Part shown: piece after piece, positions 3,363 to 42,266 of the stretch
How the letters are laid out: each line of letters begins with the position of its first letter
Numbering within the stretch: position 1 is the stretch's first letter
Assembly: GCA_963776275.1 (NCBI GenBank)
Contig: CAVZMI010000023.1
Span: 1-64,000 of the forward strand
Direction: 5' to 3'
DNA: 64,000 nt
From: Ignavibacteriota bacterium
Lineage (GTDB): Bacteria; Bacteroidota; Ignavibacteria; UBA10030; CAVZMI01
The notes under the pieces: model-generated
What the model saw: only the letters and a program-made list of their open reading frames with translations
Told to the model about the DNA's origin: nothing
The model's database searches: none
Translations under genes and position numbers: made by a program

Positions 3363-3364
3363 CG

Positions 3365-24455: not shown

Positions 24456-25610
24456 ATGAGTAAAATTGAACTGACAATTCTGATGCCCTCACTCAATGAG
24501 TCGGCAACTATTGCCAAGTGTATACGAAAGGCGCGTGGGTTTCTTGATCGGGAAGGAATTCATGGAGAGGTTCTAGTTGCAGACAACGATAGCACCGATG
24601 GATCGCAATCAATTGCAGAACAATCGGGTGCTCGAGTCATCCATGTCGAACAAAAAGGGTATGGAAGTGCGCTCCTTGGAGGGATTCAGGCAGCAAGGGG
24701 CACCTTCGTAATCATGGGAGATGCGGACGATAGTTATGATTTCGCCAATCTTAAACCCTTTGTCGATCGACTACGAGAAGGGTACGACCTGGTAATGGGG
24801 AACCGTTTTAAAGGAGGCATTGCCCCGGATGCTATGCCTTTTCTCCATCGCTATCTCGGCAATCCGGTTCTTACCTGGCTTGGAAAGATATTATTCCACA
24901 GTCCATGCGGTGATATTTATTGCGGACTTAGGGGATTTAAGCGGGAGAGTATATTGGACCTCGATTTACGGACAACGGGAATGGAATTTGCAATCGAAAT
25001 GATTGTAAAAGCACCGCTTCGTGGAATGAAAATAACTGAAGTTCCTACAATGTTATCACCGGACGGGCGGAGCCGACCACCTCATCTTCTAACATGGAGA
25101 GACGGGTGGCGGAGTCTCCGCTTTCTCATTTTATACAGCCCCACGTGGTTATTTCTGTATCCCGGATTTGTACTCATGGCGCTGGGTATCATCGGCGGGT
25201 CTGTGTTGATTTTTGGCGGACCTCTAAAAATCGGCTCTGTGTATCTGGATATTCATTCGCTGCTCCTTTCGAGTCTTTTGGTTATTCTTGGTTTTCAATC
25301 TATTTCATTTGCTTTTATGAGCAAATTATTTGCTATAACAGAAAAACTGTTGCCACAGAGCCGACGATTTACAAAGCTGTTTAGGTTTTTTACATTGGAA
25401 AAAGGATTAATAACGGGATTTATTGAGGTATTTTTTGGTTTCGCGGGAATAGCCTATGCGGTGATCTTATGGGGAGAGCGATCTTTTGGTGAGCTCAACG
25501 CTTCCCAGATGATGCGTGTGGTGATCCCGGCATTCACTTTTTTGGCTCTTGGCGTTCAAACCATTTTAACAAGTTTTCTCTTAAGTTTCATCGGACTAAA
25601 AAGGCGATGA
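24456..25610 (+). CDS. GT2 dolichol/polyprenol-phosphate sugar synthase with C-terminal TMs
   Basis: Motifs LMPSLNE, KGYGSAL, MGDADDSYDF, VMGNRF and TWRDGWR; four TMs. Confidence 0.9.
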   Translation: MSKIELTILMPSLNESATIAKCIRKARGFLDREGIHGEVLVADNDSTDGSQSIAEQSGARVIHVEQKGYGSALLGGIQAARGTFVIMGDADDSYDFANLKPFVDRLREGYDLVMGNRFKGGIAPDAMPFLHRYLGNPVLTWLGKILFHSPCGDIYCGLRGFKRESILDLDLRTTGMEFAIEMIVKAPLRGMKITEVPTMLSPDGRSRPPHLLTWRDGWRSLRFLILYSPTWLFLYPGFVLMALGIIGGSVLIFGGPLKIGSVYLDIHSLLLSSLLVILGFQSISFAFMSKLFAITEKLLPQSRRFTKLFRFFTLEKGLITGFIEVFFGFAGIAYAVILWGERSFGELNASQMMRVVIPAFTFLALGVQTILTSFLLSFIGLKRR

Positions 25611-26227
25611 AGATTATTGATCTGCTGCACGAGAAATTTATTTACCAGCGGCGCATAAAAATCCTTGCCCATCATCTTGCGAAACTCATCCCTCCTAATG
25701 CTAGTGTATTGGATGTCGGTTGTGGCGATGGCCTGCTTGACCGGACGATAATGACTCTCCGTACCGATATAACAATCTTTGGAATAGACGTTCTCATACG
25801 CGGGACTTCACATATCGCCATGCGGAAGTTCGATGGAAAAAACATTCCGTTCGACAGTTCAAGATTTGATGTCGTAATGTTTATCGATGTGCTTCATCAT
25901 ACAAAAAATCCCGAGGATTTACTAAAAGAAGCGATGAGAGTGTCGCGGGGAATACTTGTGTTGAAAGATCATCTCAAGCACGGAATATTTGCAGGAACAA
26001 TACTGAAATTAATGGATGATATCGGCAATTATCGACATGGTATTAATCTAGTCTATAATTACTTCACAAAAAAAGAATGGGATAAAACATTTGCATCGCT
26101 CGGATTATCTGTGACCAATTGGGACACCGTGATCCGTTTGTATCCTTGGCCGTTGAGTTTAGTTTTTGGTCGAATTCTCCATTTCATTGTGAGGTTGAAT
26201 CTTCCACAGAAATATTATTTACAATAA
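25607..26227 (+). CDS. Class I SAM methyltransferase (type 11-like)
   Basis: Motifs VLDVGCGDG and DVLHH; ATGA overlap with the upstream gene. Confidence 0.88.
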   Translation: MKIIDLLHEKFIYQRRIKILAHHLAKLIPPNASVLDVGCGDGLLDRTIMTLRTDITIFGIDVLIRGTSHIAMRKFDGKNIPFDSSRFDVVMFIDVLHHTKNPEDLLKEAMRVSRGILVLKDHLKHGIFAGTILKLMDDIGNYRHGINLVYNYFTKKEWDKTFASLGLSVTNWDTVIRLYPWPLSLVFGRILHFIVRLNLPQKYYLQ

Positions 26228-26241
26228 CAGGGATATCAACA

Positions 26242-26790
26242 GTGCGAAAGCTGGATCGAGCAATACAGCTGTTGCGTATAAAAAAAGCTGTTCAATTCAT
26301 ACCTGACGGAGCATCTGTCCTGGATATCGGTTGCATGGAAGGTGAATTGTTTAAGTATCTTGGTGATCGCATTGGATCGGGTATAGGTGTGGATCCGAGA
26401 CTTCCTTCCCCTGTTCGTACACCTCGCTATACACTTATCCGCGGACGATGGCCCGAAGATGTACCTCCGACTATGGCGTTCGATGTGGTAACCCTCCTTG
26501 CGGTTATCGAGCACTTACCCGAAGATATACTTGCAATCTTCAGTTCACGGTGTGCTCAGATGATGAAACCGGGAGGTCGATTGATCCTCACGGTTCCTTC
26601 CCCATTTGTTGATGTTTTGTTGCGTGTCCTTAAGACTTTGAGGCTCATGGATGCTATAGCGTTTGAAGAACATCATGGTTTTGTTCCGGCAAATATTTTT
26701 GAATTTATTGGTTCGCCATATTTTCGTCTATATCATCATGAACGTTTTGAATTTGGGTTTAATCATATATTTGTGTTCGCAAGGATCTGA
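26242..26790 (+). CDS. Class I SAM methyltransferase
   Basis: Motifs VLDIGCMEG, LAVIEHL and MKPGGRLILTVP; GTG 26242. Confidence 0.85.
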   Translation: MRKLDRAIQLLRIKKAVQFIPDGASVLDIGCMEGELFKYLGDRIGSGIGVDPRLPSPVRTPRYTLIRGRWPEDVPPTMAFDVVTLLAVIEHLPEDILAIFSSRCAQMMKPGGRLILTVPSPFVDVLLRVLKTLRLMDAIAFEEHHGFVPANIFEFIGSPYFRLYHHERFEFGFNHIFVFARI

Positions 26791-27257: not shown

Positions 27258-30056
27258 ATGTATAGTCTTGCCGCCTTCATTCATATTGTCGTGCTTTTGA
27301 TGATTACATGGTATTCCCTACGATCATATGATGAATGTTGGCTCCATAAGAGTTTCGCAGTACTGATTCTTGTTTGGTCAAATTTAGTTATTACGGCTTT
27401 GTTTCTGAGCCTCTTTTCTGCACTCGGTTCTCTACCCCTTTATTTCTTCGTCTCAATTATTCTTGCGATTGTAACGGCTCTCGTAGTGCCGCACTTTACA
27501 AAATCAATGGCTGCCAATTATTCCTGTACGATAATGCAGGGGAAAAGCGCCCGGTCATGGTTGATGACAACGTCATTGATTCTTCTGCTCATTTGCTTTA
27601 TTTGTACAAGTGTCATTTGCTTGTTATACTATCCAAACAACTGGGATACTGAATCGTATCGCTTTGGACGGGTATTTCTTTATTTAGGGCAGGGAAACTT
27701 GAGCCATATCCCCTGTCCGGATTCAAGACTTTCAGTGTATCCATTTAACGGCACACTTGCCTATCTATACTTCGCAGAATACGCACTCGATGGAAGATGG
27801 TTTAATCTTCTCAGCCTGATATTTTGGAGTTTCGGTGTTGCCGGTTGTTTTGCGTTCGCACGCGATTTGGGTGCTTCGAAAACAGGTTCATTGATTGCGG
27901 CGGCAATTTTTGGGACAACCCCAATCGTTGCGACTGTGGCGGCTTCGACAAATGACGAAATTATCGCAGCCGTACCGCTTCTTATCGGGCTCATATTTCT
28001 TTTTCGTTGGTGGAAATCCCGGAATCGATTCGATTCGATCGTCAGCGGACTTGCCCTTGGCTTGAGTGCAGGAACAAAACTACACATTGTTTTCTTCGTA
28101 CCAATCACAGCTGTAGTGGCAATAATTCTCCTTATTATCCTTATCCAAAAGAAGATGGTTCGTACTGTCATCCGTGAGCGCGGTAAAGGTGCATTGGTCA
28201 TTATAATAATTGCTATCTTCCTTTTTGTACCGTTTATGATTGTCAACATATCACAGGGAGGTTTTACATTTTTTAGTTCCAAATGGGTCAATCCTCTTTT
28301 AAATAAGCCCTTCGATGCAGGTATGGCACTCAAAAACACAACGCTTTTTTCATCTCAATTATTTCTCAGCCCGATTCCCGACCTGATTATTTCACCGGAT
28401 GACGACTTTAAACGAAAGTGTTATCAAAATTTTAATGACTTTTTCAACAAATTGGTTTTTAATAATGTGAATGACGATAAGAATTATTCATTCGCTCATT
28501 ATCGCTTCAGGGGTGTCGCAAATCCGGATGGTTTTTACTCGTTTGAACAAACCTTCTGGCTTGGTTTCATTCCTTTCCTTTTTGTATACGGGCTGATCAC
28601 CCTTTATCGAAACAGGAAATATGTTACTTTTGTGCCTTTCATTCTTATAATACTTTTCTTCTCATGGCACTTTGCCCGTAGTATGCTGACAAAATATATT
28701 GAAACGACGGGAGTATATTATGTATATCCATTTACAATCGCGGCAATGGCGATTGCAGCGATCTGGGATCTTCGTGAACATCAGGGAAGAATTGGTCGAA
28801 AAATAACTCTGATTGGTTTTTCCATAATTATTCTTAGTAACGGAATATTTCTTTCGAACTTGTTCATATATAATATTCAAAGAAATTTCAGTCGGCTTTA
28901 TCAATCACATTTCATTCTGCAGCAGAAATATATGTCAAGAGAAGTCGTCAAGGCAATGCAGGAATCACCAAAAATGAATTTTATTTATACCCGGAGGGGA
29001 TTTCCATACTTCCAGTTTGCGGCTCGAAGTCCGGAAACGCGTTTCACGACAGATACGCAACTTGATCCCACAAAAGTCGATATCCTGAATCTTATGATTT
29101 ATCCTTTCAGAAGCGAGTACGGTCACATACCTATAAAAGTACCCCATCCTCAGAATAATTTATTGACACTCATGGGCTATCTGGAAAATGTTTACGGAAG
29201 AGAAGGAATTTTTGGATTTGGTGGAAATGGCCGTGAGTATAATACCTATGGAACGGACTATAACCTTTTACATTATAAACCAATTTATGATGAAAACGCC
29301 TCGATCCCTAAAACACTCGTTTTCTCTCCAAAGTTGGAGGTGCCGCTCGATTCTCCGTACCAATTTCGATTACTGGTTGTGGAGCCTTCCGGTTCATCTT
29401 TCTATCTGACAGAATGGATCGAGAAGGAACGTATTAGGATGCAAATTCCTCTTCCTCCGATTCCTAGTGGATCAAAGCTGAAGGTTCAAATGCGGCTTCG
29501 GTCTGCGCCTCTGGATATTACTGAAACTCTGTTTCCGCTTGATCGAGGTATTGAGTGGGATATATCGCAAAAAAGTATAACACCAACGGAGTTAGATATC
29601 GGTAAAAGGAATAGACTTGAGGGCGAGGTCTTTCGATGTGATTTGATCGAAAATATCGTACAGAAGGGTTTTTCAGTAAATGGAATGCGGGAACCGGAGG
29701 GCCCGTATGAAAAATGGCAATTGCCACGTGTCCGTTGGGCGAACAATCCTGTCGTAACGCTTACGGTTTCGGAGGAACTGTCAAGGTCGATAAATACTCT
29801 TTCATTGATGTTCAGTATTAGGCCGCAAATTCGGCCGTCGTCTTCATTTTTTGTTCGTCTCAATAATAAAATCATAAAGAAATACGAGCTGAATGATCCG
29901 ACCACATGGGTTGATGATGTAATCGAGTTGCATCCTATGAAAGGATTGAATAAGATTGAACTCATCAGCCGGAGTAAGTTCAAGGTGGCTGCACCATCTG
30001 AAAATCTCCACATATTATTCCGTTCTCTTATGGTAACGGGTAAAAGAAGACACTAG
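27258..30056 (+). CDS. GT-C (ArnT/PMT_2-like) membrane glycosyltransferase with large C-terminal extracytoplasmic domains, paralogue 1
   Basis: Motifs NNWDTESYR and GLSAGTK; about 13 TMs; C-terminal PEGPYEKWQLPRVRWA. Confidence 0.7.
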   Translation: MYSLAAFIHIVVLLMITWYSLRSYDECWLHKSFAVLILVWSNLVITALFLSLFSALGSLPLYFFVSIILAIVTALVVPHFTKSMAANYSCTIMQGKSARSWLMTTSLILLLICFICTSVICLLYYPNNWDTESYRFGRVFLYLGQGNLSHIPCPDSRLSVYPFNGTLAYLYFAEYALDGRWFNLLSLIFWSFGVAGCFAFARDLGASKTGSLIAAAIFGTTPIVATVAASTNDEIIAAVPLLIGLIFLFRWWKSRNRFDSIVSGLALGLSAGTKLHIVFFVPITAVVAIILLIILIQKKMVRTVIRERGKGALVIIIIAIFLFVPFMIVNISQGGFTFFSSKWVNPLLNKPFDAGMALKNTTLFSSQLFLSPIPDLIISPDDDFKRKCYQNFNDFFNKLVFNNVNDDKNYSFAHYRFRGVANPDGFYSFEQTFWLGFIPFLFVYGLITLYRNRKYVTFVPFILIILFFSWHFARSMLTKYIETTGVYYVYPFTIAAMAIAAIWDLREHQGRIGRKITLIGFSIIILSNGIFLSNLFIYNIQRNFSRLYQSHFILQQKYMSREVVKAMQESPKMNFIYTRRGFPYFQFAARSPETRFTTDTQLDPTKVDILNLMIYPFRSEYGHIPIKVPHPQNNLLTLMGYLENVYGREGIFGFGGNGREYNTYGTDYNLLHYKPIYDENASIPKTLVFSPKLEVPLDSPYQFRLLVVEPSGSSFYLTEWIEKERIRMQIPLPPIPSGSKLKVQMRLRSAPLDITETLFPLDRGIEWDISQKSITPTELDIGKRNRLEGEVFRCDLIENIVQKGFSVNGMREPEGPYEKWQLPRVRWANNPVVTLTVSEELSRSINTLSLMFSIRPQIRPSSSFFVRLNNKIIKKYELNDPTTWVDDVIELHPMKGLNKIELISRSKFKVAAPSENLHILFRSLMVTGKRRH

Positions 30057-30136: not shown

Positions 30137-30859
30137 ATGAATATTCCGACACTATTTCACATCACGCATTGGAAGGCTGGATCGCAATGGGTTGCAAAAG
30201 TACTCAAGGAGCTATTCCCTGATGAAATCATTCCACCGAGAATTGCGGCTGCCCAGGTTCTCCAAATGCCGATACAAGAACACAAAGTCTATTTGTGTGT
30301 CTATATTGCGAAAGGACAATGGGACCAAATCCAACTTCCAAAAGAGACACGGCGGTTTCTGATTATTCGCGATCTTCGGGATACACTGGTCTCGGCATAT
30401 TTCTCAATGCGATATAGCCATCCCATCATGATAAATCAAATGGAAGAATGGCGTAATTTTTTAAGGACAAATAGTTTGCGTGATGGCATGGTGTATTTAA
30501 TGGAAAATTGGCTTCCGGACAGCGCGAATATACAGCGATCCTGGTTGAAAGCAGGGGAAAAATTTTTCCGTTTTGAAGATATTCTAAAAAACGATATTGT
30601 TTGCTTCGAGAAAATACTTATTGACCATTGTCAGTTACCCATTGAAAAAGCAGTGCTTCATGATATAGTTCGACGAAATAGATTCAACACGTTAAGTAAA
30701 GGCCGGAATCCGGGTGCAGAAGATCGGTTGTCGCATTATCGAAAAGGACTTCCGGGTGATTGGCAGAACTATTTCAGTGAAGAAACAAAAAAGGAATTTA
30801 AGAAACGTTTCAATGATGTTCTCATTCTGACCGGGTATGCGGACAACGATACCTGGTGA
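30137..30859 (+). CDS. Sulfotransferase (Sulfotransfer_1 type)
   Basis: Motifs HITHWKAGSQW (5'-PSB), IRDLRDTLVSAYFS (3'-PB) and RKGLPGDWQNYF. Confidence 0.85.
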   Translation: MNIPTLFHITHWKAGSQWVAKVLKELFPDEIIPPRIAAAQVLQMPIQEHKVYLCVYIAKGQWDQIQLPKETRRFLIIRDLRDTLVSAYFSMRYSHPIMINQMEEWRNFLRTNSLRDGMVYLMENWLPDSANIQRSWLKAGEKFFRFEDILKNDIVCFEKILIDHCQLPIEKAVLHDIVRRNRFNTLSKGRNPGAEDRLSHYRKGLPGDWQNYFSEETKKEFKKRFNDVLILTGYADNDTW

Positions 30860-30879
30860 AAAGTATTTCGATAAAGATA

Positions 30880-31682
30880 ATGGGAAGATGATCAAACTAT
30901 TCGTATGTTTCCGTGAGTTATGGAATAGGCGCGAATTATTATTTTCGCTTACAAAGCGGGATATTAAATCGCGATATCAACAGACTTTTTTTGGAATGGG
31001 CTGGTCTTTGTTTCAGCCGGTAATGCAGGCTGTAGTCTATACAGTTGCCTTCTCGTTGATACTTAAAGTGCCGATTCGCGAAGGAATACCGTACATGAAT
31101 TTTGTGTTCTGTAATCTCACACTCTGGGCCTATTTTGCATCAACAACCCTCAGCGCAATGAACAGCATACGTATGAATTCCGCTTTGATAACACGGGTAG
31201 CGTTCCCGCGTGAAATAATTCCTTTTTCGACCATTCTGTCAGGACTATTCGATTTCATAATTATGTTTATCGTCCTGGTTATTCTAAACGCTTTTGTCGG
31301 CTTTTATCCAAATATCCGATTTCTGTATTTGCCCACGATTATTTTGATTGAAATTCTTTTCATTCTGAATATTTCATTAGTATTAAGTGTGATTTCGATT
31401 GTACGTCGTGATATTACCCATGTCGTGAATTATTTTATTATGCTTTATATGTTTATATCGCCGGTCTTTTTTCCGTTCTCGGCACTACCGGCTGAAATAC
31501 AGCGATATTATTTTCTCAATCCGATGGGGACTCTTCTTGAAGGATTTAAGAATATTATATTTCTTGACAAAGAACCCCGCTGGTTTGCATTGATGATGGT
31601 GATCATAATACTGATCGTTCTTTTTTTCCCCTGTTATATTTTTTTCAAAAAAGCTGAACGTTCCTTCACGGATGTACTATGA
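30880..31682 (+). CDS. wzm: Polysaccharide ABC transporter permease (copy 2)
   Basis: Motifs RDIKSRYQQTFFGMGW, ITRVAFPRE and FLNPM. Start approximate. Confidence 0.9.
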
Positions 31683-33079
31683 TTGCACTTCGTTTCAATA
31701 ATGTCACGAAAATTTATGATCTGCAGGCGGGTCGGGACACTTTTCTCACGACTCTCAGGTTTACTCTGGGCAATGTTAAGCGGAATGATTTCTTCCATGC
31801 CGTTCGTGATATAAATATTGAAATAAAAAAAGGCGAAGCAGTCGGTATCATCGGACGTAATGGAGCGGGGAAAAGTACACTGCTGAAACTTGCGGTCGGG
31901 ATTACCTATCCGACATATGGATCGGTTGAAGTGAACGGTTCGATTGCCGCACTCATAGGACTTGGGGCAGGATTCAATCCCGATTTCACCGGTCGGGAAA
32001 ATATTTTCCTTAATGCTTCGCTATTGGGCGTTCCAAGGAAGAAAGTGGAGGAACGTTTTTCCGAGATTGTCGCCTTTGCAGAATTAGAAGATTTTATCGA
32101 TGTTCCGGTTAAGCGGTACTCTTCGGGGATGTACGCGCGGCTCGGATTTGCCATCGCGACTCACGTTGATGCCGATATCATTGTCATCGATGAAGTACTG
32201 GCTGTAGGAGACATATATTTTCAACAAAAATGCTTTTTATTTTTAGAATCGCTTCTTCAAAAAGGGAAAACTCTTCTATTTGTGAGTCATGATGTAGGCA
32301 GTGTGCGTGAACTATGCGATTCTGTAATATTGCTTGAGAAGGGCGTGAACATATTTCATGGAGATCCAAGAGAAGGTGTAAATAGATACTTACTATTACA
32401 GCAGAAAAAGGATACTGCAAAGGATTCCGAGAATGAAATTCGCGTGGAACCGAAGACTAGTACTGCATCAAATGTGGATATTACGGTTGATAATAAATCG
32501 CAGGAAGGGAAGAGGAAATTCCTGCCGCGCCAATGGTCCGACATCGATGCACTGGATCTTTCTTCCTCTGCTGTTCTTATTGGTGAGAGAGACGTTCATT
32601 GGAAGGGCGTCGTGATCTATGATAAGGACGGAAGTCGCTGCAATTCTTTTTCCATGGGGGATGAAGCGTGGTTTTATTATGAGTTTGAGGTTCTGCGTGA
32701 TATACTTACTCCGTTTGCCGGCGTTGCGATTTATGATAGGAAAGGAATTCTTGTTCACGGAAAGACGACATATCAGCATGGAATACAGCCGCGCCGTACA
32801 GTTGGAAAAAACGCGACGATCCGGGTTATTCAATCGATAAAGCTTCCATTGTCACCCGATACGTATACTTTTGAACTATGGCTCAGCATGATGGAGCCGG
32901 AGACTCATGAACAGCTTCAACATCTTAAAGCAGAACAAATTCAGGCAGGTGTCACCAAACTGATGCATATAAGCAGAGCAGGTTCGATCATTATTACCCC
33001 TAATCCGAACAATATTGCTATCAATAATTTTGGTATAGTCGACTTGCCGGGGAGTGGAGATCTGACAATACTCCCCTGA
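31679..33079 (+). CDS. wzt: Polysaccharide ABC transporter ATPase with a C-terminal carbohydrate-binding (Wzt_C) domain (copy 2)
   Basis: Motifs GRNGAGKS, YSSGMYARLGFA and DEVLAVGD; about 190-aa beta-rich C-terminal extension ending FGIVDLP. Confidence 0.92.
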   Translation: MIALRFNNVTKIYDLQAGRDTFLTTLRFTLGNVKRNDFFHAVRDINIEIKKGEAVGIIGRNGAGKSTLLKLAVGITYPTYGSVEVNGSIAALIGLGAGFNPDFTGRENIFLNASLLGVPRKKVEERFSEIVAFAELEDFIDVPVKRYSSGMYARLGFAIATHVDADIIVIDEVLAVGDIYFQQKCFLFLESLLQKGKTLLFVSHDVGSVRELCDSVILLEKGVNIFHGDPREGVNRYLLLQQKKDTAKDSENEIRVEPKTSTASNVDITVDNKSQEGKRKFLPRQWSDIDALDLSSSAVLIGERDVHWKGVVIYDKDGSRCNSFSMGDEAWFYYEFEVLRDILTPFAGVAIYDRKGILVHGKTTYQHGIQPRRTVGKNATIRVIQSIKLPLSPDTYTFELWLSMMEPETHEQLQHLKAEQIQAGVTKLMHISRAGSIIITPNPNNIAINNFGIVDLPGSGDLTILP

Positions 33080-33127
33080 TAAGTTTTTCCTAAAAAGAAT
33101 CTGATAATATTATCATAGAAGAGTTAT

Positions 33128-36100
33128 ATGATTACGAAAGCCGGAAAAAATCTTGCCTATATTTATTCAACTCCCCGCTCTGGCTCGACATTGCTTGCGG
33201 CGATGCTCGGCGGTCACGATAACGTCTATGTCCCTCCCGAACCATGGTTTCTACTTTTACTTCATTCTCTTCTCTCTTCTGATGATGCGATTGTTGCACA
33301 TTATGACGAAAATCTGGCACGCCGCGCATTTCGAGAATTGTCTCCGGAGAATATCATCACAGAAGCCTCGCAAAACTATGCATTGACGGTATATAATAGT
33401 CTGTTGGAGAAAAACAAAAAAAAATATTTTGTCGATAAAACTCCCCGATATTACCATGTCCTTGAATGGATCGATACGCTATTCCCTGAAGCCAAAAAAA
33501 TACTCTTAGTCCGAAATCCACTCGATATCTTTGCATCATATAAAGATGTGTGGGGAATCGAAGTAGAGGAAATGATCGGTGAACAGCCCTCTCCATTTTC
33601 ATTCGACGCCACGATAGCATATTTCAGATTTCAGGATTTTTATAAGCGATCGCATACAAATATGATCCGGATTTCCTATGAGAATCTTGTGATTGATCCC
33701 CATACCGTGATGCACGGGGTATGCAGTTTTTTAGGATTGGCATTTAACGAGAGGATGATATCCTATGGAGAGAATAAAGAACTACTGACATGGTACGCAA
33801 ATTCCAGCATGGGCGATCGAAAGGTACTTTCCGAAATAGCTCCGCATCGAAAATCATGCGGAAAATGGAAAACAATCCTGACCCCCATGGAAACTCAAAA
33901 GATTGTGACGACGCTCGGGACAAGGATATTCGAAGAGAACGGCTATAAGACCGAATTACAGGAAGCTCTGTTATTTGCTTCGCTGCAATATGAAAAGGTC
34001 GACCGCGAAGGCAGAAAGGAAGAACTCTTTAAACAATATCAGACCTATGTCGAGACGCGGCTTTCATCATCTACAGCCCTATCCAATGTGGCTCTCACAA
34101 GGAAGAATGAAGAGCTCCTGAAATATATAACTACAATAGAGAAGGATAGGCAGGATCGACTCGAGGCAATCCTACGTTATCAGGAACAACTGGATAACTC
34201 TCGTAATGCAATTGAGCAAAAAGAAAAACGAATACAACAACTTCTGGAGGAAACGCTCGGGATTCAGGATCAACTGCTAGACTCTCGTGATGCAATTAAA
34301 CAAAAAGAAAAACGAATACAACAACTTCTGAAGGAATCACTCGAGTTTCAGAATCAACTGGCAGACTCTCGTGATGCGATTGAGCAAAAAGAAATACGAA
34401 TCCAACAACTTCTGACAGGAACGTACGGGTTTCAAAATCAACTGACAGAACTCCGGGATGTCATAGCACAAATCGAAAAAGACAGACAGGCCAGACTCGA
34501 TTCGATACTCTATTACCAAAAAGAACTGGCGGAAGTACAGCGACGGAATCAGGAACTTATCGATACGATTTCTTCGATTGAAAACGACAGGCGGGCCAGA
34601 CTTGAGTCGATACTCTATTACCAAACAGTATTGTCGGATTTACAACATCGGTATGATGTGATCGAAAAAGACCATGCAAATCTTTTGATGTTAGTCGAAA
34701 CATTGAATGGTCATATTGCTGAACTCGGAACATTGGAAACGTCGTTACGCCGGTTCATTGAGTTGTCGTTACGCAGCATCGGTCTCTATGATTTTATTTT
34801 ACGCCACCGAAAAAAGCTTAACCAGGTTTTTCTGTTCGTATTGCACGCGGGGGCCGGATTAGCTTCTGTTATCCGCAAATTCCATCGCAAAAGGGAGCTT
34901 GGTGTAGTGAAAGCAGACACCGCTCCTTTACAAAAACAGACTCTTAAAGAAACATTAAACTCACCCGAGGTCAATGCTTATGTCAATTCACGGTTAATTC
35001 AGGGTGATCTGGAAGACAGTGTAATACACCATTTCCTCGATAATAATTCTTCGTTTTCATCCGTAATCTGTCTCATGCCGGACCCAAATGATCTTCAATT
35101 ACTGATTTTTCTTAAAGAACTCGGGAAATCTGTATTTGTTCTTCATTCTCCGTCCGAAAATTTAAGTCTCATTAAACCGAATATTTCTTTTACAGCGTGC
35201 ATCGCCGATGGATGGTTCATGAAGTATGGCCGGCCGGAACTTTCAAAATATGATGTTCTATTCATAGGAAAGAATTGTTCACATTCGTATTTCCAACTAT
35301 TAAAAAATTATGTTTCACCTCGAACGGCGATGATTCTTCATAATACCAGTTTTTCGGAAGAGTTATTTTTACTTGAGGGTAGGATTAAGGTGACAATCGG
35401 CAGCTTTGTTTCTCTATCTCCTTGCTCCAATTCAAAGGGATTATTCAAGGTATCCGAAGAACGCCGGACAATCGACGGTACACAATGGCCGTGGAAGCAG
35501 TTCAAGTCTGAAATCCCATCGACCATGCCCTCCGGCAGGCCCTGGCCGAGAATATCGGTCGTTACAGCCACACTCAATCAGGGTGATTTCCTTGAAGAGG
35601 CAATTCGCTCGGTGCTGTTACAACGTTATCCGAACCTTGAGTACATCCTCCTCGATGGGGGCTCGACCGATACAACACCCGAGATTCTCAACCGGTATAA
35701 AAATGAGTTCGCAGTGTGTCTAAGTCAAAAGGATAAAGGTCAGGCCGATGCGTTAAACAGGGGTTTCCATCATGCAACCGGAGAAATTCTTGCATGGCTG
35801 AATAGCGACGACCGATATCTTCCCAACACATTTCTTGATGTTGCGCTGGCATTTGATACGTATGCCTGTGATATGGTTGCAGGGGGATGTGCTCTGGTCA
35901 ATAATAACGAAGTAATTCCCTGGAGTGTACATCACACTTTATTACCTCTGGGGGAAAAAGTCCGGCTTCCACTCGATAATCTTCTCGATATCGATGGTTC
36001 CTGGCAAAAAGGCGATTTTTTTTATCAACCGGAAGTGTTCTGGAGCAGGAATATCTGGGAAAAAGCCGGGAGACGAATTGATAGTACTCTCCATTACAGC

Positions 36101-36280
36101 ATGGATTATGAACTCTGGGTAAGAATGGCGATCGCTGAAGCGTCCATTGTTCATATTCCCGAGACGCTTGCGTATTTTCGAATGCATCAACGGCAAAAAA
36201 CAAGCGGTAAGGATTTACCGTTTCTTCCGGAGTTACGAAAGTTGAATAAAAGGCTTCTTAAAGAATTGAGAAAAAAATAA
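33128..36280 (+). CDS. Sulfotransferase / coiled-coil / GT2 multidomain protein
   Basis: Sulfotransferase motifs STPRSGSTLL, VDKTPRY and VRNPLD; long heptad-repeat region; C-terminal GT2 (ISVVTATLNQG, DGGSTD, WLNSDD, MDYELW). Confidence 0.88.
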   Translation: MITKAGKNLAYIYSTPRSGSTLLAAMLGGHDNVYVPPEPWFLLLLHSLLSSDDAIVAHYDENLARRAFRELSPENIITEASQNYALTVYNSLLEKNKKKYFVDKTPRYYHVLEWIDTLFPEAKKILLVRNPLDIFASYKDVWGIEVEEMIGEQPSPFSFDATIAYFRFQDFYKRSHTNMIRISYENLVIDPHTVMHGVCSFLGLAFNERMISYGENKELLTWYANSSMGDRKVLSEIAPHRKSCGKWKTILTPMETQKIVTTLGTRIFEENGYKTELQEALLFASLQYEKVDREGRKEELFKQYQTYVETRLSSSTALSNVALTRKNEELLKYITTIEKDRQDRLEAILRYQEQLDNSRNAIEQKEKRIQQLLEETLGIQDQLLDSRDAIKQKEKRIQQLLKESLEFQNQLADSRDAIEQKEIRIQQLLTGTYGFQNQLTELRDVIAQIEKDRQARLDSILYYQKELAEVQRRNQELIDTISSIENDRRARLESILYYQTVLSDLQHRYDVIEKDHANLLMLVETLNGHIAELGTLETSLRRFIELSLRSIGLYDFILRHRKKLNQVFLFVLHAGAGLASVIRKFHRKRELGVVKADTAPLQKQTLKETLNSPEVNAYVNSRLIQGDLEDSVIHHFLDNNSSFSSVICLMPDPNDLQLLIFLKELGKSVFVLHSPSENLSLIKPNISFTACIADGWFMKYGRPELSKYDVLFIGKNCSHSYFQLLKNYVSPRTAMILHNTSFSEELFLLEGRIKVTIGSFVSLSPCSNSKGLFKVSEERRTIDGTQWPWKQFKSEIPSTMPSGRPWPRISVVTATLNQGDFLEEAIRSVLLQRYPNLEYILLDGGSTDTTPEILNRYKNEFAVCLSQKDKGQADALNRGFHHATGEILAWLNSDDRYLPNTFLDVALAFDTYACDMVAGGCALVNNNEVIPWSVHHTLLPLGEKVRLPLDNLLDIDGSWQKGDFFYQPEVFWSRNIWEKAGRRIDSTLHYSMDYELWVRMAIAEASIVHIPETLAYFRMHQRQKTSGKDLPFLPELRKLNKRLLKELRKK
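34181..34460 (+). repeat. Intragenic 84-bp (28-aa) tandem repeat, three full copies plus a partial
   Basis: Units start at 34181, 34265, 34349 and 34433; consensus QxQLxDSRDAIEQKEKRIQQLL. Confidence 0.9.
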
Positions 36281-37521
36281 TGGAGTGGAAGATCGGAGAA
36301 TACCTTCATTCTGGAAAACGGCTTCGTGTGCTTTTCCTTAATGATGTTGGCTTTCAATATGGAGCGGGAATAGCGCAAATGCGGCAGATTCAATCGTTTC
36401 TACTGATGGGGTGTGAAGTGGCAGGGTTGTGCTGGAGTCATGGAGTTGAAGCGCAGATCCCGTTCATACCTCACGATGCATCGGGCACATGGTTGGGATT
36501 ACGGCAAATGCCTCATCTTCATCGCAGCAGAGGTAGCGATGATGAAATGATTATTAAAGGCCTTCTGGAAGAAATATACGACATTTCTCCCGATCTTATT
36601 GTTGTTGGAAATCTTCATGGAGCACGCTGGCCTTTGGAATTACTCTCTGTTTTGCGGGAACAGGGAATCCCCATGGTTGTATATATGCATGATTTGTTCT
36701 GGCTGAGTGGACGCTGTGCATACTCGGGGGAATGCCTCAAATTTATTTCCGGGTGTGATGCCACCTGTCCTACAGCACATGAATATCCGGAACTTGAGCC
36801 TTCGAAAATCGAGAACGCGTGGAAATTACGCCGTTCACTTTTTTGTGGTCCCGACGGCATCCCGTTAGCAACAAACAGCGACTGGATCACCCGCCTGGCT
36901 CACGATGCACTTGCACCGACTACGAAATCGGAAACGATATATCTCGGTCTGGATACCTGTTTCTATCGTCCAATCGATAAAAAACTTGCCCGTCGTTTGC
37001 TTCGCCTTTCGCAGGATGAATTTATCATTCTTAGCGGTGCCGTTAATGTGTACGAAAACAGAAAAGGAGTAAAATATTTACAGGAAATAATACATTATTT
37101 ACATTCTTCTGCGACGTTCATCGTCTTTGGAGAGAATTCGCTAACGATGGATGGAGTCTATTCTTCCGGTCTCCTGCGGGATTACCGGAAGATGATTCTA
37201 TTATATAATGCCGCAGATGTCTTTATAGGTACAGCCCTGCAAGAGGCTTTCGGCCAGACATTTTGCGAAGCTTCGGCATGCGAGCTCCCTGTCGTCGCAT
37301 TTAATATCGGAGGTGTATCCGAAGTCATCACTGATGCACAGACAGGAATTCTTGTCCCGCCCGGTGATAATAAAGAAATGATTAAAGCGATTGGGACGCT
37401 TCGAAACGATCGTGCATTTCGCGTAGTACTCGGCCGTGCCGGACGGCAACGGATTGAAGAAAAATTTTCGCTGGAAAAACAGAAAGAACGCTGGGTCAAT
37501 TTTTTATTGAATATCAATTAA
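36280..37521 (+). CDS. GT4 glycosyltransferase (WcaC-like)
   Basis: Motifs GNLHG, MHDLFWLSGRCAY, NRKG and EAFGQTFCEA. Confidence 0.88.
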   Translation: MEWKIGEYLHSGKRLRVLFLNDVGFQYGAGIAQMRQIQSFLLMGCEVAGLCWSHGVEAQIPFIPHDASGTWLGLRQMPHLHRSRGSDDEMIIKGLLEEIYDISPDLIVVGNLHGARWPLELLSVLREQGIPMVVYMHDLFWLSGRCAYSGECLKFISGCDATCPTAHEYPELEPSKIENAWKLRRSLFCGPDGIPLATNSDWITRLAHDALAPTTKSETIYLGLDTCFYRPIDKKLARRLLRLSQDEFIILSGAVNVYENRKGVKYLQEIIHYLHSSATFIVFGENSLTMDGVYSSGLLRDYRKMILLYNAADVFIGTALQEAFGQTFCEASACELPVVAFNIGGVSEVITDAQTGILVPPGDNKEMIKAIGTLRNDRAFRVVLGRAGRQRIEEKFSLEKQKERWVNFLLNIN

Positions 37522-37537: not shown

Positions 37538-38401
37538 ATGTTTAAAGTCTCTCCATCGCCGACATTATATTATAACGATCGCTCACTTGATAGTATGCGT
37601 CCGAGTTATCAGCGTGATGATGTTTTTATTAATGAAGAACATAGGATGATTTTTGAAGTGACGAAAGACATACCGGGATGGCAAATGGAAGCAGATTCAT
37701 ATAAGTTGTATGAACTCGGTTACTATGCCGGCGATGTGATTCTGGAAATCGGTACATACGGAGGCCGTTCGGCGGTCATCGAGCTGCGTGGGGCATTGAG
37801 TAATCCGGATAGGTTGGGACCACCCCAATTCTTCGGTGTTGACGTTGATCGTAAATCTATTCGTCGTACATTCTACATGTTGAACAGGTTCGGTGTATTA
37901 GAAAACGCATTTCTCTTTCGTGGTACTCTCTACCAGTTTATTCATAGGTACCAGATATCACCGACAATGGTGTTTATGGATGCAAACCATCGTTATGAAG
38001 ATATCGTGGAGGATATTCGTCAACTAACGACGATTCTTCCTGCCGGTGTTCCTGTTTTATTCCACGATTTTTTAAATTCGGAAAATGATACAGGTGAGTA
38101 CGGTGTCCGGCGAGCAGTGACTGAGTGGGAAAATGATGGATACGGAACTTTCATCGGTGCATTCGGTTGTTCGGCATTGTTCGTCAGCGGACAGCGTTGT
38201 CGCGGAAACGGGAATTCATTATCCCGGGATGAATTCGATCAATCCCGACATAGACTATTCAGATCGTATAAATTGATGGAAAAAAATGGGGATAAAACAA
38301 TCATAGTTCCTGAAGAGAAAAGAATCTGGTCTTTCCATGATGATATTTCACTGCTGTCGAGAATAAAGACAAGAATACTTCATATGTTGAGGCCGAGGTA
38401 A
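37538..38401 (+). CDS. Class I SAM methyltransferase (Methyltransf_24-like)
   Basis: Motifs LEIGTYGGRS, FMDANHRY, LFHD and YGVRRAV. Confidence 0.85.
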   Translation: MFKVSPSPTLYYNDRSLDSMRPSYQRDDVFINEEHRMIFEVTKDIPGWQMEADSYKLYELGYYAGDVILEIGTYGGRSAVIELRGALSNPDRLGPPQFFGVDVDRKSIRRTFYMLNRFGVLENAFLFRGTLYQFIHRYQISPTMVFMDANHRYEDIVEDIRQLTTILPAGVPVLFHDFLNSENDTGEYGVRRAVTEWENDGYGTFIGAFGCSALFVSGQRCRGNGNSLSRDEFDQSRHRLFRSYKLMEKNGDKTIIVPEEKRIWSFHDDISLLSRIKTRILHMLRPR

Positions 38402-39372
38402 TGGATATCAATTCATGGTTAAAGCAATGGCGGGAGAAGGCGGGGATTATTTATGTCTCACAACCCCACCGATTTGCTCATGACGAAACCAAGTATGACG
38501 AACAATATAAGATCGATCCGAAGGATATACAGGCGGGGAAGGGGTTGGTCTCGTTGTTGCGGCGCCGTGATGCTTCATTCAGGGGCCCTGCGTTGGAAAT
38601 CGGTTGCGGTACCGGCCGTTTATCATTGGGTCTGGTCCAGGAAAATGTGTACCCCGTAACACTTCTGACCGATCCGTCTGTTAAATTCCTCAAAATTGTG
38701 CAGGAGAAAATAACACGCTTATCCATAAATCAGAATTCAATACGATATGCGGTTCTGTCCGCCGAAGAAATCGGTGTATTACCAGAAAATACATTTTCGC
38801 TAATTGCACTGCGCTCGACATTACATCATGTCCTCGATGTATCGAAATTTATTCATGAAGCCGCCCGAGCATTGTTAACCGGGGGAATATTGACGTTCGA
38901 GGAGCCATGCCGCGAAGGATTTATAATAATGGGGATGATGGCGCAATTCATGATTCCGATGTTAGAGGCAAAAGGAATCGGTATTTCCGGTAAGCATCAG
39001 TCACAGATAAAGACGTTTATTGATGTAATGAAATTTTATTCCCGTTACGATGTCGATAAAACATCGAGCGAGGATAAACATGTCTTTCGAGTCGATGACG
39101 TAATGAAACAGGGTCAATCAGCCGGATTAAAAGTGGAATTTCTGCCGAACCGTGTGTTCGATGAGTTTATTTATCAGCCCGTATCTCCTCACGATAGAAA
39201 ATTTTTTAATGTTTTTTTTAAAAAATACCTCTCTTACTGTATGTCATTTGATAACGAGCTGATAGGTATTCTTGATAAACACTTCTTTAAACATTTTCCA
39301 TTTATAGAAGATATATCGGAGGGAGATAACGCTCCATATATGCACGGTGTTTTTATTTGCATAAAATTATAA
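38401..39372 (+). CDS. Class I SAM methyltransferase
   Basis: Motifs ALEIGCGTG, STLHH and GGILTFEEP. Confidence 0.88.
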   Translation: MDINSWLKQWREKAGIIYVSQPHRFAHDETKYDEQYKIDPKDIQAGKGLVSLLRRRDASFRGPALEIGCGTGRLSLGLVQENVYPVTLLTDPSVKFLKIVQEKITRLSINQNSIRYAVLSAEEIGVLPENTFSLIALRSTLHHVLDVSKFIHEAARALLTGGILTFEEPCREGFIIMGMMAQFMIPMLEAKGIGISGKHQSQIKTFIDVMKFYSRYDVDKTSSEDKHVFRVDDVMKQGQSAGLKVEFLPNRVFDEFIYQPVSPHDRKFFNVFFKKYLSYCMSFDNELIGILDKHFFKHFPFIEDISEGDNAPYMHGVFICIKL

Positions 39373-39419
39373 ACAACAACAACGTGAATATTTTTGGTCT
39401 CATAATTGATCCATACCCC

Positions 39420-42158: not shown

Positions 42159-42266
42159 TGATTGTGCACCGTGATCAAATTAGAGCCATAGTATATGGGA
42201 AAACAATGAAAATTTGGCAATAAAAATGAAACTCTGGGAATTGATCCTATTTGAGCACATTAAAAA

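Follow-up and report, generated by a model that had tools for sequence, protein, structure and literature searches.

The gene cluster at positions 30137 to 37521 of this DNA raises the question of whether a sulfotransferase can take the place of the chain-terminating enzyme in a glycan export system, with sulfate serving as the export signal. In E. coli O9a, chain length is set by WbdD, which combines a kinase/methyltransferase with a coiled coil and an amphipathic helix; WbbB, with a polymerase, a coiled coil and a Kdo terminator, also sets chain length, and the carbohydrate-binding module of Wzt recognizes the cap. In the 64-kb window (the whole stretch of DNA analyzed), five plus-strand open reading frames (ORFs), with coordinates identical to those in the first-pass annotation, each overlap a neighbor or lie no more than 48 bp from it. 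They are given here in gene order, with the module of Wzt and the next gene downstream added:

30137..30859, plus strand: stand-alone sulfotransferase P0203, 240 aa (Pfam Sulfotransfer_1, 4.7e-10)
30837..31682, plus strand: Wzm, ABC-2 permease of the glycan exporter, 281 aa (Pfam ABC2_membrane, 1e-15)
31679..33079, plus strand: Wzt, ABC ATPase with a C-terminal extension, 466 aa (Pfam ABC_tran, 2.1e-18)
32582..32920, plus strand: Wzt_C carbohydrate-binding module, Wzt residues 302 to 414 (Pfam Wzt_C, 2.6e-14; 53.8 bits, cut-off 30.4)
33128..36280, plus strand: multidomain protein P0001, 1050 aa (Pfam and AlphaFold2)
36280..37521, plus strand: GT4 glycosyltransferase, 413 aa (Pfam Glycos_transf_1, 7.2e-20)
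37538..38401, plus strand: Methyltransf_24 methyltransferase, 287 aa (Pfam, 4e-10)

wzm shares 23 bp with the upstream sulfotransferase gene and 4 bp with wzt, and the start of the GT4 gene has 1 bp in common with the stop of P0001; ORF coordinates and Pfam confirmed that the 1050-aa protein follows a Wzt with a C-terminal domain and abuts a GT4. The cluster runs on well past 37521 (Pfam scan of the window), and the methyltransferase at 37538..38401, which lies beyond the stretch first annotated, probably belongs to the sulfotransferase/exporter system; in P0072 and L037, which are single-polypeptide versions, a Methyltransf_24 domain separates the sulfotransferase from GT2. At least 10 methyltransferase genes or domains occur in the island (with starts including 25607, 26119, 37538, 38401, 42267, 43177, 44616, and 49529), and three sulfotransferases were detected in the window (Pfam). 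No PAPS-synthesis genes were seen within the 64-kb window by Pfam scan.

The AlphaFold2 model of P0001 had a mean pLDDT of 84.8, all three globular domains being confident, and the protein is built in the following order:

33128..33982, plus strand: N-terminal PAPS-type sulfotransferase domain, residues 1 to 285 (Sulfotransfer_3, 7.7e-27; pLDDT ~97)
34016..34726, plus strand: heptad/coiled-coil region, residues 297 to 533 (AlphaFold2 helices 297 to 428 and 435 to 533; heptad periodicity)
34180..34449, plus strand: 84-bp tandem repeat, 3.2 copies, 84% matches (Tandem Repeats Finder, score 361)
34724..34897, plus strand: cationic amphipathic and hydrophobic helices, residues 533 to 590 (hydrophobic moment, AlphaFold2)
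34934..35422, plus strand: alpha/beta domain with a class I methyltransferase-like fold, residues 603 to 765 (pLDDT ~90; Foldseek)
35540..36217, plus strand: GT2 (GT-A fold) domain, residues 805 to 1030 (Glycos_transf_2, 4.9e-27)
36221..36274, plus strand: C-terminal cationic amphipathic helix, residues 1032 to 1049 (hydrophobic moment 0.70; AlphaFold2 helix)

Pfam placed Sulfotransfer_3 at residues 12 to 208 (95.4 bits; cut-off 27) and Glycos_transf_2 at residues 810 to 937 (95.3 bits; cut-off 23.3), in agreement with the N-terminal sulfotransferase and C-terminal GT2 of the first-pass annotation. The segment that had been singled out as amphipathic looking, SLRRFIELSLRSIGLYDFIL, corresponds to residues 539 to 558 and indeed lies within a cationic amphipathic region, where the hydrophobic moment reached 0.55 at residues 533 to 552 (and 0.56 at 570 to 588) with a net charge of +3 to +5. 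Among 19-residue stretches of P0001, hydrophobicity peaks at residues 564 to 582 (Kyte-Doolittle 1.66), short helices were modeled at 536 to 588, and the helical region at 533 to 590, which is shared with P0002, is probably a membrane-association region. The domain at residues 603 to 765, between the amphipathic segment and GT2, was absent from the original description. Its best Foldseek matches were sugar/catechol O-methyltransferases (MeT1 6g80, 2.7e-5, TM ~0.5, 12% identity), and an Atlas lead to Methyltransf_24 scored only 0.82; Pfam gave no match to these residues, hhalign gave no support, and no glycine-rich SAM loop was visible in the sequence after the first strand. The domain is probably not an active methyltransferase.

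GT2 of P0001 is probably a polymerase component, with the 413-aa GT4 as a probable second one. Sequence matches of GT2 were 6p61 (3.6e-13) and 9omh (8e-11), and its best Foldseek match was the O-polysaccharide fucosyltransferase WrtF of Rhizobium tropici (9omm, 2.3e-13), likewise a GT-A enzyme, from an O-polysaccharide pathway that uses an ABC transporter and a Wzt with a binding module. WrtF differs in being a stand-alone protein of ~280 aa with only 21 to 23% identity to GT2 of P0001, and its donor specificity is therefore not transferable. WrtF is reported to bind the membrane via a C-terminal segment (PMC12595478), which may be compared with the helix at residues 1032 to 1049, where the hydrophobic moment is the highest in P0001. 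Homologues of the 413-aa GT4 are fused at the C terminus of sulfotransferase-GT2 proteins in L030 (3.8e-73), L037 (5.9e-59), P0004, and P0005, which thus join a sulfotransferase-coil to GT2 plus GT4.

The placement of the sulfotransferase was assessed by scanning a single genome from each species, which gave 159 relatives, with 80 loci kept; a sulfotransferase ORF could be called in 75 of these, and 68 of the 75 also had at least 2.5 kb of upstream sequence. A tail of at least 150 aa after the sulfotransferase domain was present in 35 of the 68 loci (long-tailed) and lacking in 33 (short-tailed). A Wzt with Wzt_C was encoded at most 2.1 kb upstream of 29 of the 35 long-tailed versus 2 of the 33 short-tailed sulfotransferases (Fisher value of 4e-11, in which independence is overstated because the loci are phylogenetically related). 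By record titles, the 29 loci belong to six phyla (Bacteroidota, Verrucomicrobiota, Planctomycetota, Chloroflexota, Myxococcota, and Pseudomonadota), and the wzt(Wzt_C) and sulfotransferase genes abut, within 100 bp, in 27 loci. ABC_tran plus Wzt_C was detected in 34 of 47 scanned ABC-ATPase ORFs, with 30 of the 34 above the curated cut-off. No recognizable Wzt with Wzt_C was found upstream in 6 of the 35 long-tailed loci (L002, L008, L010, L022, L044, and L065), among which L044 has an abutting Wzt without any module. Since the sulfotransferase-coil is found repeatedly, in six phyla, directly downstream of wzt(Wzt_C), and since the gene order in some loci resembles that of O9a, there is support for the earlier proposal of a sulfotransferase in the terminator position. 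The computational checks suggested in the first-pass annotation (PAPS-binding residues, coil, and survey) all turned out in favor of it.

The resemblance to O9a is clearest in minimal versions of the locus (L004, L007, and L021), which encode Wzm, Wzt with Wzt_C, a sulfotransferase-coil only (535 to 679 aa), and an ~825-aa protein with two GT4 domains, the last being followed by GT2 in L007 and L021. Thus, the Opitutaceae loci L007 and L021 (and the first four genes of L004) have the order wzm, wzt, capping enzyme-coil, double GT4, which corresponds to the O9a order, wzm-wzt-wbdD-wbdA. With WbdD of O9a and Klebsiella O3, the system shares the ABC-transporter pathway, a Wzt with a C-terminal carbohydrate-binding module, a capping enzyme other than a glycosyltransferase at the N terminus of a coil, and amphipathic membrane-binding helices, whereas WbdD has a kinase and a methyltransferase in place of the predicted PAPS sulfotransferase and lacks the polymerase GT2 that the coil protein P0001 carries. 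WbbB of Klebsiella O12 and Raoultella terrigena and the Klebsiella O4/O7 proteins are alike in having an N-terminal terminator, a coil ruler, and C-terminal polymerase glycosyltransferase(s) in one polypeptide; their terminators are Kdo transferases (GT99 and GT137) or a methyltransferase-kinase instead of a sulfotransferase, and their polymerase modules come from other GT families than that of P0001. In PMC11231755, termination is assigned to a protein marked by a coiled-coil ruler.

A sulfotransferase tethered to a polymerase complex could also be a decorating enzyme, acting within the chain or on side branches, with the true cap being an O-methyl group added by a neighboring methyltransferase, or with some other terminator; we regard this as unlikely, though it is the best placed of the alternatives. 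In E. coli O8, an O-methyl sugar cap is read by Wzt. The many methyltransferases of the island, the methyltransferases in four of six neighborhoods examined in detail (L004, L032, L050, and L069), and the three sulfotransferases of the window, which suggest generally sulfated glycans, fit with decoration. So do the FkbM methyltransferases that fill the N-terminal slot of the sulfotransferase in sister architectures. Modular swapping as such speaks for a terminator: the C-terminal half, made up of the methyltransferase-like fold and GT2 and often including the coil end, recurs behind FkbM methyltransferase, GT4, GT9, or GT2 N-terminal domains, and methylation is an established cap chemistry (PMC9445017). 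The best solved relative of the window Wzt was full-length Aquifex aeolicus WzmWzt (8dku, 3.2e-66; also 7k2t), which has the same two-part design of ATPase and module; the 3.2e-66 match covers the nucleotide-binding domain, and the Aquifex module was matched by a weak second stretch. As described in PMC9445017, that module binds a 3-O-methyl mannose or rhamnose cap in a small hydrophobic pocket. The window module is very divergent. A methyl cap is a live alternative at this locus because of the at least 10 methyltransferases of the island and the 3-O-methyl cap read by the Aquifex Wzt. Decoration, however, has no evident need for a coil of 100 to 350 aa or for a strict place directly after wzt(Wzt_C), and the short-tailed family members lack this linkage (2 of 33). 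Moreover, no methyltransferase was found at E ≤ 1e-10 in L007 and L021 among the ORFs submitted (56 of 163 listed), and the sulfotransferase invariably sits N-terminal to the coil, remote from GT2, whereas Methyltransf_24 adjoins GT2 in P0072 and L037.

The 34 sulfotransferase-linked modules have a consensus from which the window Wzt_C departs at several positions, with E337 and H430 at mostly basic positions occupied by Arg in 21 and 22 of the 34, respectively, and, as judged by sequence, it is a divergent member of this set; it is the presumed cap reader. A comparison with Aeromonas salmonicida A450 counts against the sulfate-cap reading. There, in an ABC-transporter O-antigen cluster, ORF19, a gene with a sulfotransferase domain, directly follows wzt and lies next to the gene for the coil-bearing WbbB, yet its authors report that the known O-antigen structure contains no sulfate and assign ORF19 no role (PMC4483657). 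ORF19 differs from P0001 in standing alone, at 216 aa, and in having no coil, and the terminator is presumably the domain of WbbB itself.

In P0203, a PAPS loop-like motif lies around residue 13 and one of the RDxRDxxVS type around residues 78 to 86; close homologues of P0203 occur in 5 of the 80 related loci. In P0008, its type follows a sulfotransferase-linker protein as a fusion (46% identity over 237 aa), and in L008 and L045 it is joined to a Wzt_C-like module; going by these predicted gene fusions in other organisms, P0203 is functionally linked to the P0001 sulfotransferase. This second enzyme is a complication for the sulfate-cap reading that was not weighed in the first-pass annotation, and neither were the island's many methyltransferases, the divergence of the window Wzt_C, and a break in the coil.

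The coil of P0001, which we propose to be a molecular ruler, has no proline at residues 297 to 533 and a hydrophobic periodicity peaking at 3.5 residues, with a heptad score reached by 0 of 300 composition-preserving shuffles. The heptad repeats described previously were thus borne out by structure and coiled-coil prediction, at a length of ~237 aa rather than about 200. Inside the coil, the tandem repeat has a unit of 28 aa, exactly four heptads, which keeps the register. Such repeats, and the range of heptad-covered lengths across the family, would fit a tunable ruler. The sulfotransferase might nevertheless cap the chain while the helix serves for oligomerization or as a scaffold, possibly a hairpin, with length depending kinetically on the terminator-to-polymerase activity ratio. 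This we consider doubtful. It would accommodate the break at residues 429 to 434 in the monomer model, the pLDDT of only 55 to 80 along the helices, the very heterogeneous heptad-covered lengths in the family (~45 to ~350 aa by a crude score), and the proline-rich linkers of P0072 and P0080. Given the break, the modeled coil may be a folded-back hairpin, which would return the sulfotransferase to the vicinity of the membrane and so undermine a ruler. The preserved register and the four-heptad repeats argue against a mere scaffold, as do the established precedents of WbdD and WbbB, whose coils serve as rulers (PMC11231755).

Whether the sulfotransferase domain could act at all was judged from its motifs. 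The PAPS loop PRSGST, the DKTPRY segment, and the R129...S137 motif are intact, Glu38 matches the PPE Glu of the CurM and olefin synthase sulfotransferases in the alignment, and all 24 of the 24 family members aligned share P16, R17, G19, P36, E38, P39, W40, D103, K104, T105, P106, R107, R129, P131, and S137. With the PAPS-binding residues conserved in this way, the domain looks catalytically active. Its closest solved relatives, the olefin synthase (4gox, 1.3e-23) and CurM (4gbm, 7.1e-19) domains and TPST1/2, share the Sulfotransfer_3 fold and PAPS-binding motifs, but they act on acyl-carrier-protein-bound beta-hydroxyacyl chains or protein tyrosine, whereas the context of P0001 is glycan assembly. 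That 4gox and 4gbm, both "activating" sulfotransferases, were the best sequence and structure matches would fit a transient sulfate, a leaving group giving, for example, an unsaturated, anhydro, or substituted sugar as the mature cap. We find this very improbable: the matches have only 26 to 28% identity (Foldseek) and reflect the broad Sulfotransfer_3 family, including TPSTs; no thioesterase or other elimination partner domain is fused or adjacent at this locus (Pfam), and a carrier protein or thioesterase context is absent around P0001. In addition, Trp40 of P0001 lies at the position of the His that follows the catalytic Glu in CurM. That the domain is a catalytically dead structural or binding remnant is hardly credible, with PAPS-binding and catalytic-region residues invariant in 24 divergent members and a pLDDT of ~97.

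On balance, we favor, with modest confidence, an ABC-transporter-dependent and cap-dependent glycan assembly and export system like those of E. coli O8/O9a and Klebsiella O12, with a sulfate terminator, a Wzt that reads it, and a coil ruler. GT2 of P0001 and the adjacent GT4 would build the lipid carrier-linked polymer in the cytoplasm, while the cationic amphipathic helices would hold P0001 at the membrane and the ~237-residue coiled coil would project the PAPS-dependent sulfotransferase away from it. Once the growing non-reducing end reached the sulfotransferase, the terminal sugar, its likely acceptor, would be sulfated; sulfation would block elongation and create an epitope for the C-terminal module of Wzt, and Wzm/Wzt would export the chain after recognition of the sulfated end. 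We infer that the coil sets chain length, the modal value being adjustable in 28-residue steps. A sulfate cap is probably read by the Wzt module, and the cap may be composite, comprising sulfate with an O-methyl group or with a second sulfate from the 240-aa enzyme. A 2019 census by Mann may have predicted such a variant. If the sulfate-terminator reading is true, sulfate may be a new stop-and-export tag for glycan chains.

The first-pass annotation had proposed a candidate sulfate-capped glycan export system of five genes at 30137-37521, and this gene set is borne out: open reading frames (ORFs) are present at the coordinates below, overlapping or at most 48 bp apart, with wzm and wzt encoded together through a 4-bp gene overlap.

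30137-30859, plus strand: 240-aa sulfotransferase (Pfam Sulfotransfer_1, 4.7e-10)
30837-31682, plus strand: Wzm, 281 aa (Pfam ABC2_membrane, 1e-15)
31679-33079, plus strand: Wzt, 466 aa (ABC_tran, 2.1e-18; C-terminal carbohydrate-binding module Wzt_C at residues 302-414, 53.8 bits versus a cut-off of 30.4)
33128-36280, plus strand: P0001, 1050 aa (Sulfotransfer_3 at residues 12-208; GT2 at residues 810-937, 95.3 bits)
36280-37521, plus strand: GT4, 413 aa (Pfam)

In the sequence of the 240-aa enzyme, one motif resembles the PAPS loop and another is of RDxRDxxVS type. A single plus-strand island of glycan-synthesis genes fills the whole 64-kb window; its G+C content is near 0.42, dropping to 0.344 at 2001-4000 versus about 0.42 elsewhere; this segment spans a family-less ORF and the gene of an LPG_synthase_TM-type membrane protein. 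The upstream half of the island also encodes a third sulfotransferase (8080-8844, 254 aa, Sulfotransfer_3, 3.2e-11), with GT2 and GT4 genes around it. A second Wzm/Wzt pair lies at 14918-16465; its 240-aa Wzt has no C-terminal module, which points to an additional glycan pathway that is independent of a cap. Three paralogues of about 910 to 930 aa with weak PMT_2 (GT-C) matches are dispersed in the cluster (27258-30056, 39357-42158, and 45576-48302) and may act in the periplasm as glycosyltransferases, attaching side branches to the exported glycan. At least 10 genes or domains for methyltransferases, belonging to several Pfam types, were found at 20319-26790 and 37538-50254, among them a fusion of methyltransferase and GT2 (43177-44670) and one of FkbM type (42267-43145), and the cluster product may be heavily O-methylated. 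Two island ORFs (22009-23964, 651 aa, and 2157-3362, 401 aa) had no Pfam match at the thresholds used, and an AAA_14/DUF4143 ATPase gene (52761-53948) is situated in the midst of the glycosyltransferase island.

The structure of P0001 was predicted with AlphaFold2 from a 91-row alignment (mean pLDDT, 84.8). The model comprises the following parts.

Residues 1-300: sulfotransferase domain (pLDDT about 97)
Residues 297-428 and 435-533: two very long helices with a break at 429-434 (pLDDT 55-80)
Between residues 536 and 588: four short helices
Residues 603-765: alpha/beta domain (pLDDT about 90)
Residues 805-1030: GT-A domain (pLDDT about 97)
Residues 1032-1049: terminal helix

Pfam assigned the N terminus of P0001 to Sulfotransfer_3, with no kinase or methyltransferase family matching residues 1-300 and no GT99 Kdo-transferase terminator domain in the protein. 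The best solved relatives of this domain are the olefin-synthase sulfotransferase (4gox, 1.3e-23), CurM (4gbm, 7.1e-19), and TPST1 and TPST2 (1e-4 to 4e-3). PAPS-type features were recognized in the P0001 alignments as PRSGST (residues 16-21), the PPE glutamate (E38), DKTPRY (103-108), and R129...S137, and the conservation of PAPS-binding residues, which the earlier annotation had left to be checked, proved complete, the motif residues being invariant in 24 of 24 aligned family proteins. The PRSGST loop and R129...S137, which we take to be the 5'-phosphosulfate loop and the 3'-phosphate motif, respectively, align with CurM, the olefin-synthase sulfotransferase, and TPST. Glu38, within PPEPW, aligns with the PPE glutamate of 4gox and 4gbm, is invariant in the family alignment, and is presumably the catalytic base, as in CurM and TPST.

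The heptad-repeat coil that had been read from the sequence held up: helices 297-533 are proline-free, their hydrophobic periodicity peaks at 3.5 residues, and their heptad score, a crude home-made measure and not a published predictor, was equalled by none of 300 shuffles of the same residues. Within the coil, an 84-bp tandem repeat (34180-34449; 3.2 copies, 84% matches) has a unit of 28 residues, exactly four heptads, so that a change in copy number would alter the length of the coil but keep its register. The break at 429-434 may, judging from the model, indicate a hairpin. Prediction of a two-copy complex of residues 290-540 scored 0.29 (mark, 0.42), which counts neither way on self-association. 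A DRxARL-type motif occurs in P0001 at residues 340, 452, and 487 (three copies) and in the related database proteins P0009 (seven copies), P0027 (four copies), and P0026, is spaced at 21 or 28 residues in the coils of some family members, and is enriched in a 33-protein sulfotransferase set (0.64 versus 0.19 per 1,000 aa). As a family hallmark it was rejected, since only 6 of the 33 proteins checked contain it, and it is therefore not family-defining.

The segment previously described as amphipathic looking corresponds to residues 539-558 and indeed falls within a cationic amphipathic stretch (moment, 0.55 at 533-552 and 0.56 at 570-588), which also holds the most hydrophobic 19-mer of P0001 (564-582). 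The strongest amphipathic helix is at the extreme C terminus (moment, 0.70). P0001 thus has a WbdD-like feature in its model, an extended coil followed by predicted membrane-binding amphipathic segments (533-588 and 1032-1049).

The alpha/beta domain at 603-765, modelled alone (pLDDT, 82.6), has a methyltransferase-like Rossmann fold: Foldseek matched it to MeT1, CCoAOMT-like, and MycE O-methyltransferases (E values of 2.7e-5 to 1e-3, TM score of about 0.5), the best match being MeT1 (6g80, 2.7e-5, 12% identity), of the sugar and catechol O-methyltransferase kind. Membership by sequence in the class I SAM-dependent methyltransferases found no support in Pfam, hhalign, or Atlas, and the glycine-rich SAM-binding motif I was not seen. 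Residues 603-765 had no Pfam match, hhalign against the window's own Methyltransf_24 gene gave nothing (probability, 0.5%), the Atlas lead to Methyltransf_24 was weak (score, 0.82), and BLASTP aligned the domain only weakly, inside a longer GT2 alignment, with P0072, a sulfotransferase-Methyltransf_24-GT2-GT4 fusion. Because of the hhalign, BLASTP, and Atlas results we name the domain methyltransferase-like in fold only, and because, besides the Pfam, hhalign, and Atlas outcomes, its sequence contains no glycine-rich SAM loop (no GxG after strand 645-649), it is probably inactive. The GT2 domain fits the GT-A type (Glycos_transf_2, 95.3 bits; LDGGSTD and NSDD motifs in the sequence), and Foldseek matched it to WrtF, SpsA, and K4CP, with WrtF at the top (9omm, 2.3e-13). 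WrtF, a fucosyltransferase, polymerises the chain in an O-polysaccharide pathway of the ABC-transporter type; according to PMC12595478, it attaches to the membrane via a C-terminal segment, and the Wzt of its pathway also has a binding module.

Whether this architecture recurs beside Wzt_C genes was assessed in public loci encoding the same sulfotransferase family. A pattern scan, with one genome per species, yielded 159 relatives, and 80 loci were kept; the protein of locus L001 is 95% identical to P0001 over all 1050 residues. ORFs were called naively in the kept loci and searched with the window proteins, and 47 ABC-ATPase ORFs were then put through Pfam. ABC_tran plus Wzt_C was found in 34 of the 47 (in L020, L026, L028, and L029 under the curated cut-off), Wzt_C fused to Sulfotransfer_1 with no ATPase in 2, and ABC_tran only in 11, among which those of L064, L066, L068, and L070 look like a different ABC type. 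Five loci were omitted as having no sulfotransferase ORF by our criteria (L013, L016, L033, L045, and L057; in L013 and L057 a Wzt_C-bearing Wzt ends at the start of the match) and seven as having less than 2.5 kb upstream (L003, L006, L014, L015, L025, L030, and L054). In the final set of 68 loci, a tail of at least 150 aa after the sulfotransferase domain was counted as long, and the Wzt_C-bearing Wzt was sought within 2.1 kb upstream.

Tail length of the sulfotransferase and presence of an upstream Wzt_C-bearing Wzt gene in the 68-locus set
Long tail: Wzt_C Wzt upstream, 29; none, 6
Short tail: Wzt_C Wzt upstream, 2; none, 31

The survey thus agreed with the earlier expectation, with 29 of 35 long-tailed versus 2 of 33 short-tailed enzymes linked to a Wzt_C gene (Fisher value, 4e-11, which ignores kinship among loci and is to be read as "strong" only). 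The Wzt and sulfotransferase genes are at most 100 bp apart in 27 loci, often with a 4-base overlap. Judged by their record titles, the 29 loci with linkage are spread over Bacteroidota, Verrucomicrobiota, Planctomycetota, Chloroflexota, Myxococcota, and Pseudomonadota. The short-tailed enzymes belong mostly to Bradyrhizobium and relatives and have no Wzt nearby; two short-tailed enzymes are nevertheless linked, those of L011 (146-aa tail) and of L042, where the ORF runs off the locus. Six long-tailed enzymes were unlinked (L002, L008, L010, L022, L044, and L065). Of these, the one in L022 is abutted by a Wzt whose long extension is unrecognised by Pfam, and the one in L044 by a Wzt without any module. 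L002 also contains a free-standing 186-aa ORF (13951-14511, plus strand) consisting of a Wzt_C-like module alone (1.5e-6, under the cut-off), downstream of a 240-aa-type sulfotransferase and a sulfotransferase-GT2 protein and with no Wzt ATPase abutting. Two Acidobacteriota loci (L008:8491-9909 and L045:5059-6471, both minus strand) encode proteins of about 470 aa in which a Wzt_C-like module (residues about 49-151) is fused to a sulfotransferase (about 305-458) closely related to the window 240-aa enzyme; both lack an ABC domain and adjoin the family sulfotransferase gene. It is unusual for a sulfotransferase to carry a cap-reader module; PMC11231755 notes that no other terminators had shown modules of this kind.

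To compare gene orders, 56 of the 163 ORFs listed from nine loci were put through Pfam (E ≤ 1e-10). L004, L007, and L021 share the gene order wzm, wzt with Wzt_C, a sulfotransferase-coil protein only (535-679 aa), and an approximately 825-aa protein containing two GT4 modules, after which L007 and L021 have a GT2 gene. This layout equals what we take to be the wzm-wzt-wbdD-wbdA order of Escherichia coli O9a. Among the submitted ORFs, methyltransferases were found in the neighbourhoods of L004, L032, L050, and L069 and, at E ≤ 1e-10, none in L007 and L021.

An exhaustive search of representative proteins returned 187,218 proteins at E ≤ 1e-3, mostly GT2 matches. Among them, P0001's C-terminal module, which starts near residue 600 and often near 440, recurs behind other N-terminal domains. 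These were FkbM methyltransferase (P0065, P0070, P0071, P0082, and P0090), GT4 (P0066, P0069, P0073, P0074, P0085, and P0091), GT9 (P0061, P0063, P0068, P0099, and P0137), and GT2 (P0059 and P0079). The N-terminal slot is therefore interchangeable, its occupants including methyltransferases, a known cap chemistry. Fusions were found of the types sulfotransferase-GT2-GT4 (P0004, P0005, P0080, P0084, and L030), sulfotransferase-Methyltransf_24-GT2-GT4 (P0072 and L037), and sulfotransferase-linker-second sulfotransferase (P0008; 46% identity to the 240-aa enzyme over 237 aa), and they connect genes that are separate in the window. Every fusion has its sulfotransferase at the coil end remote from the GT2, and the Methyltransf_24 domain is on the GT2 side.

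With cap-dependent ABC export systems the window shares Wzm, the Wzt nucleotide-binding domain, and the Wzt_C module; its coil-bearing enzyme, a candidate terminator judging from sequence, is conserved beside Wzt_C genes. P0001 resembles WbdD, the terminator and ruler of E. coli O9a, in its extended coil and amphipathic segments but differs in its N-terminal catalytic domain, a sulfotransferase. With the WbbB-type fusion it shares the single-polypeptide order of putative terminator, coil, and glycosyltransferase (here sulfotransferase, coil, and GT2), to which relatives add GT4, whereas the GT99 Kdo-transferase of WbbB has no counterpart. Since the defining catalytic domains of both terminator families are absent, P0001 lies outside them. 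According to PMC11231755, the terminator is part of a protein that has a characteristic coiled-coil ruler. The caps characterised so far are methylation, (methyl)phosphorylation, and Kdo (PMC9445017), to which a methyltransferase-kinase and a Kdo transferase of family GT137 have most recently been added (PMC11231755). As a caution, the ORF after wzt in Aeromonas salmonicida encodes a sulfotransferase domain, yet the O-antigen there has no known sulfate (PMC4483657). Our search of the literature on sulfotransferases with Wzm/Wzt, rulers, or chain termination found no proposal of a sulfotransferase terminator; it did not take in the 2019 Glycobiology census of Mann, Kimber, and Whitfield (29:822), which is most likely to have predicted one and the abstract of which reportedly speaks of "new chemistries."

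We propose by analogy that the window system works like WbdD/Wzt and WbbB. GT2 and GT4 would polymerise the chain at the membrane, where the amphipathic helices would anchor P0001, with the coil as a spacer of fixed length for the sulfotransferase; once the chain had grown to that distance, its terminal sugar would be sulfated, and the sulfate would both stop elongation and be the ligand of the Wzt module, which would then allow export. Our demonstration extends to anatomy and genomic linkage only; acceptor, termination, recognition, and ruler function we infer from the likeness to WbdD and WbbB, and we hold the scheme as a whole to be slightly favoured. The main rival, in which a methyl group is the cap and the sulfotransferase merely decorates the chain, seems to us rather improbable: it accords with the many methyltransferases in the window and with the methyl-reading Wzt of Aquifex aeolicus (PMC9445017) but leaves unexplained why only coil-bearing family members follow Wzt_C genes. 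The full-length Aquifex O-antigen transporter WzmWzt is the best solved relative of the window Wzt (8dku, 3.2e-66); a mapping by hand of its methyl-pocket residues onto the window module was dropped as too unreliable. Alignment of 34 sulfotransferase-linked Wzt_C modules among themselves revealed no clear anion-binding signature; two columns are mostly basic, and the window module, which departs from the consensus of this set, has Glu and His there.

Among quality controls in glycan assembly, one of the best understood is the setting of chain length by cap, ruler, and cap-reading transporter. That sulfation of the non-reducing terminal sugar by a sulfotransferase-coil "ruler" family is a widespread, uncharacterised fourth chemistry of termination and export licensing for ABC-transporter-dependent bacterial glycans in at least six phyla, with the adjoining Wzt_C modules and the Acidobacteriota fusions as readers of sulfated glycans, is a proposal to which we give an even chance. 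If true, a sulfate cap would be a new chemistry beside methyl, (methyl)phosphate, and Kdo, and a large, easily recognised protein family would be defined (159 relatives with one genome per species; full linkage in 29 of 68 loci). The family would also offer a natural set of coil-length variants, including 28-residue repeat units, for tests of the ruler model. On this proposal, phyla of soil and water that have been little studied would be expected to bear surface glycans with terminal sulfate, and sulfated-sugar-binding modules useful as reagents would become available.
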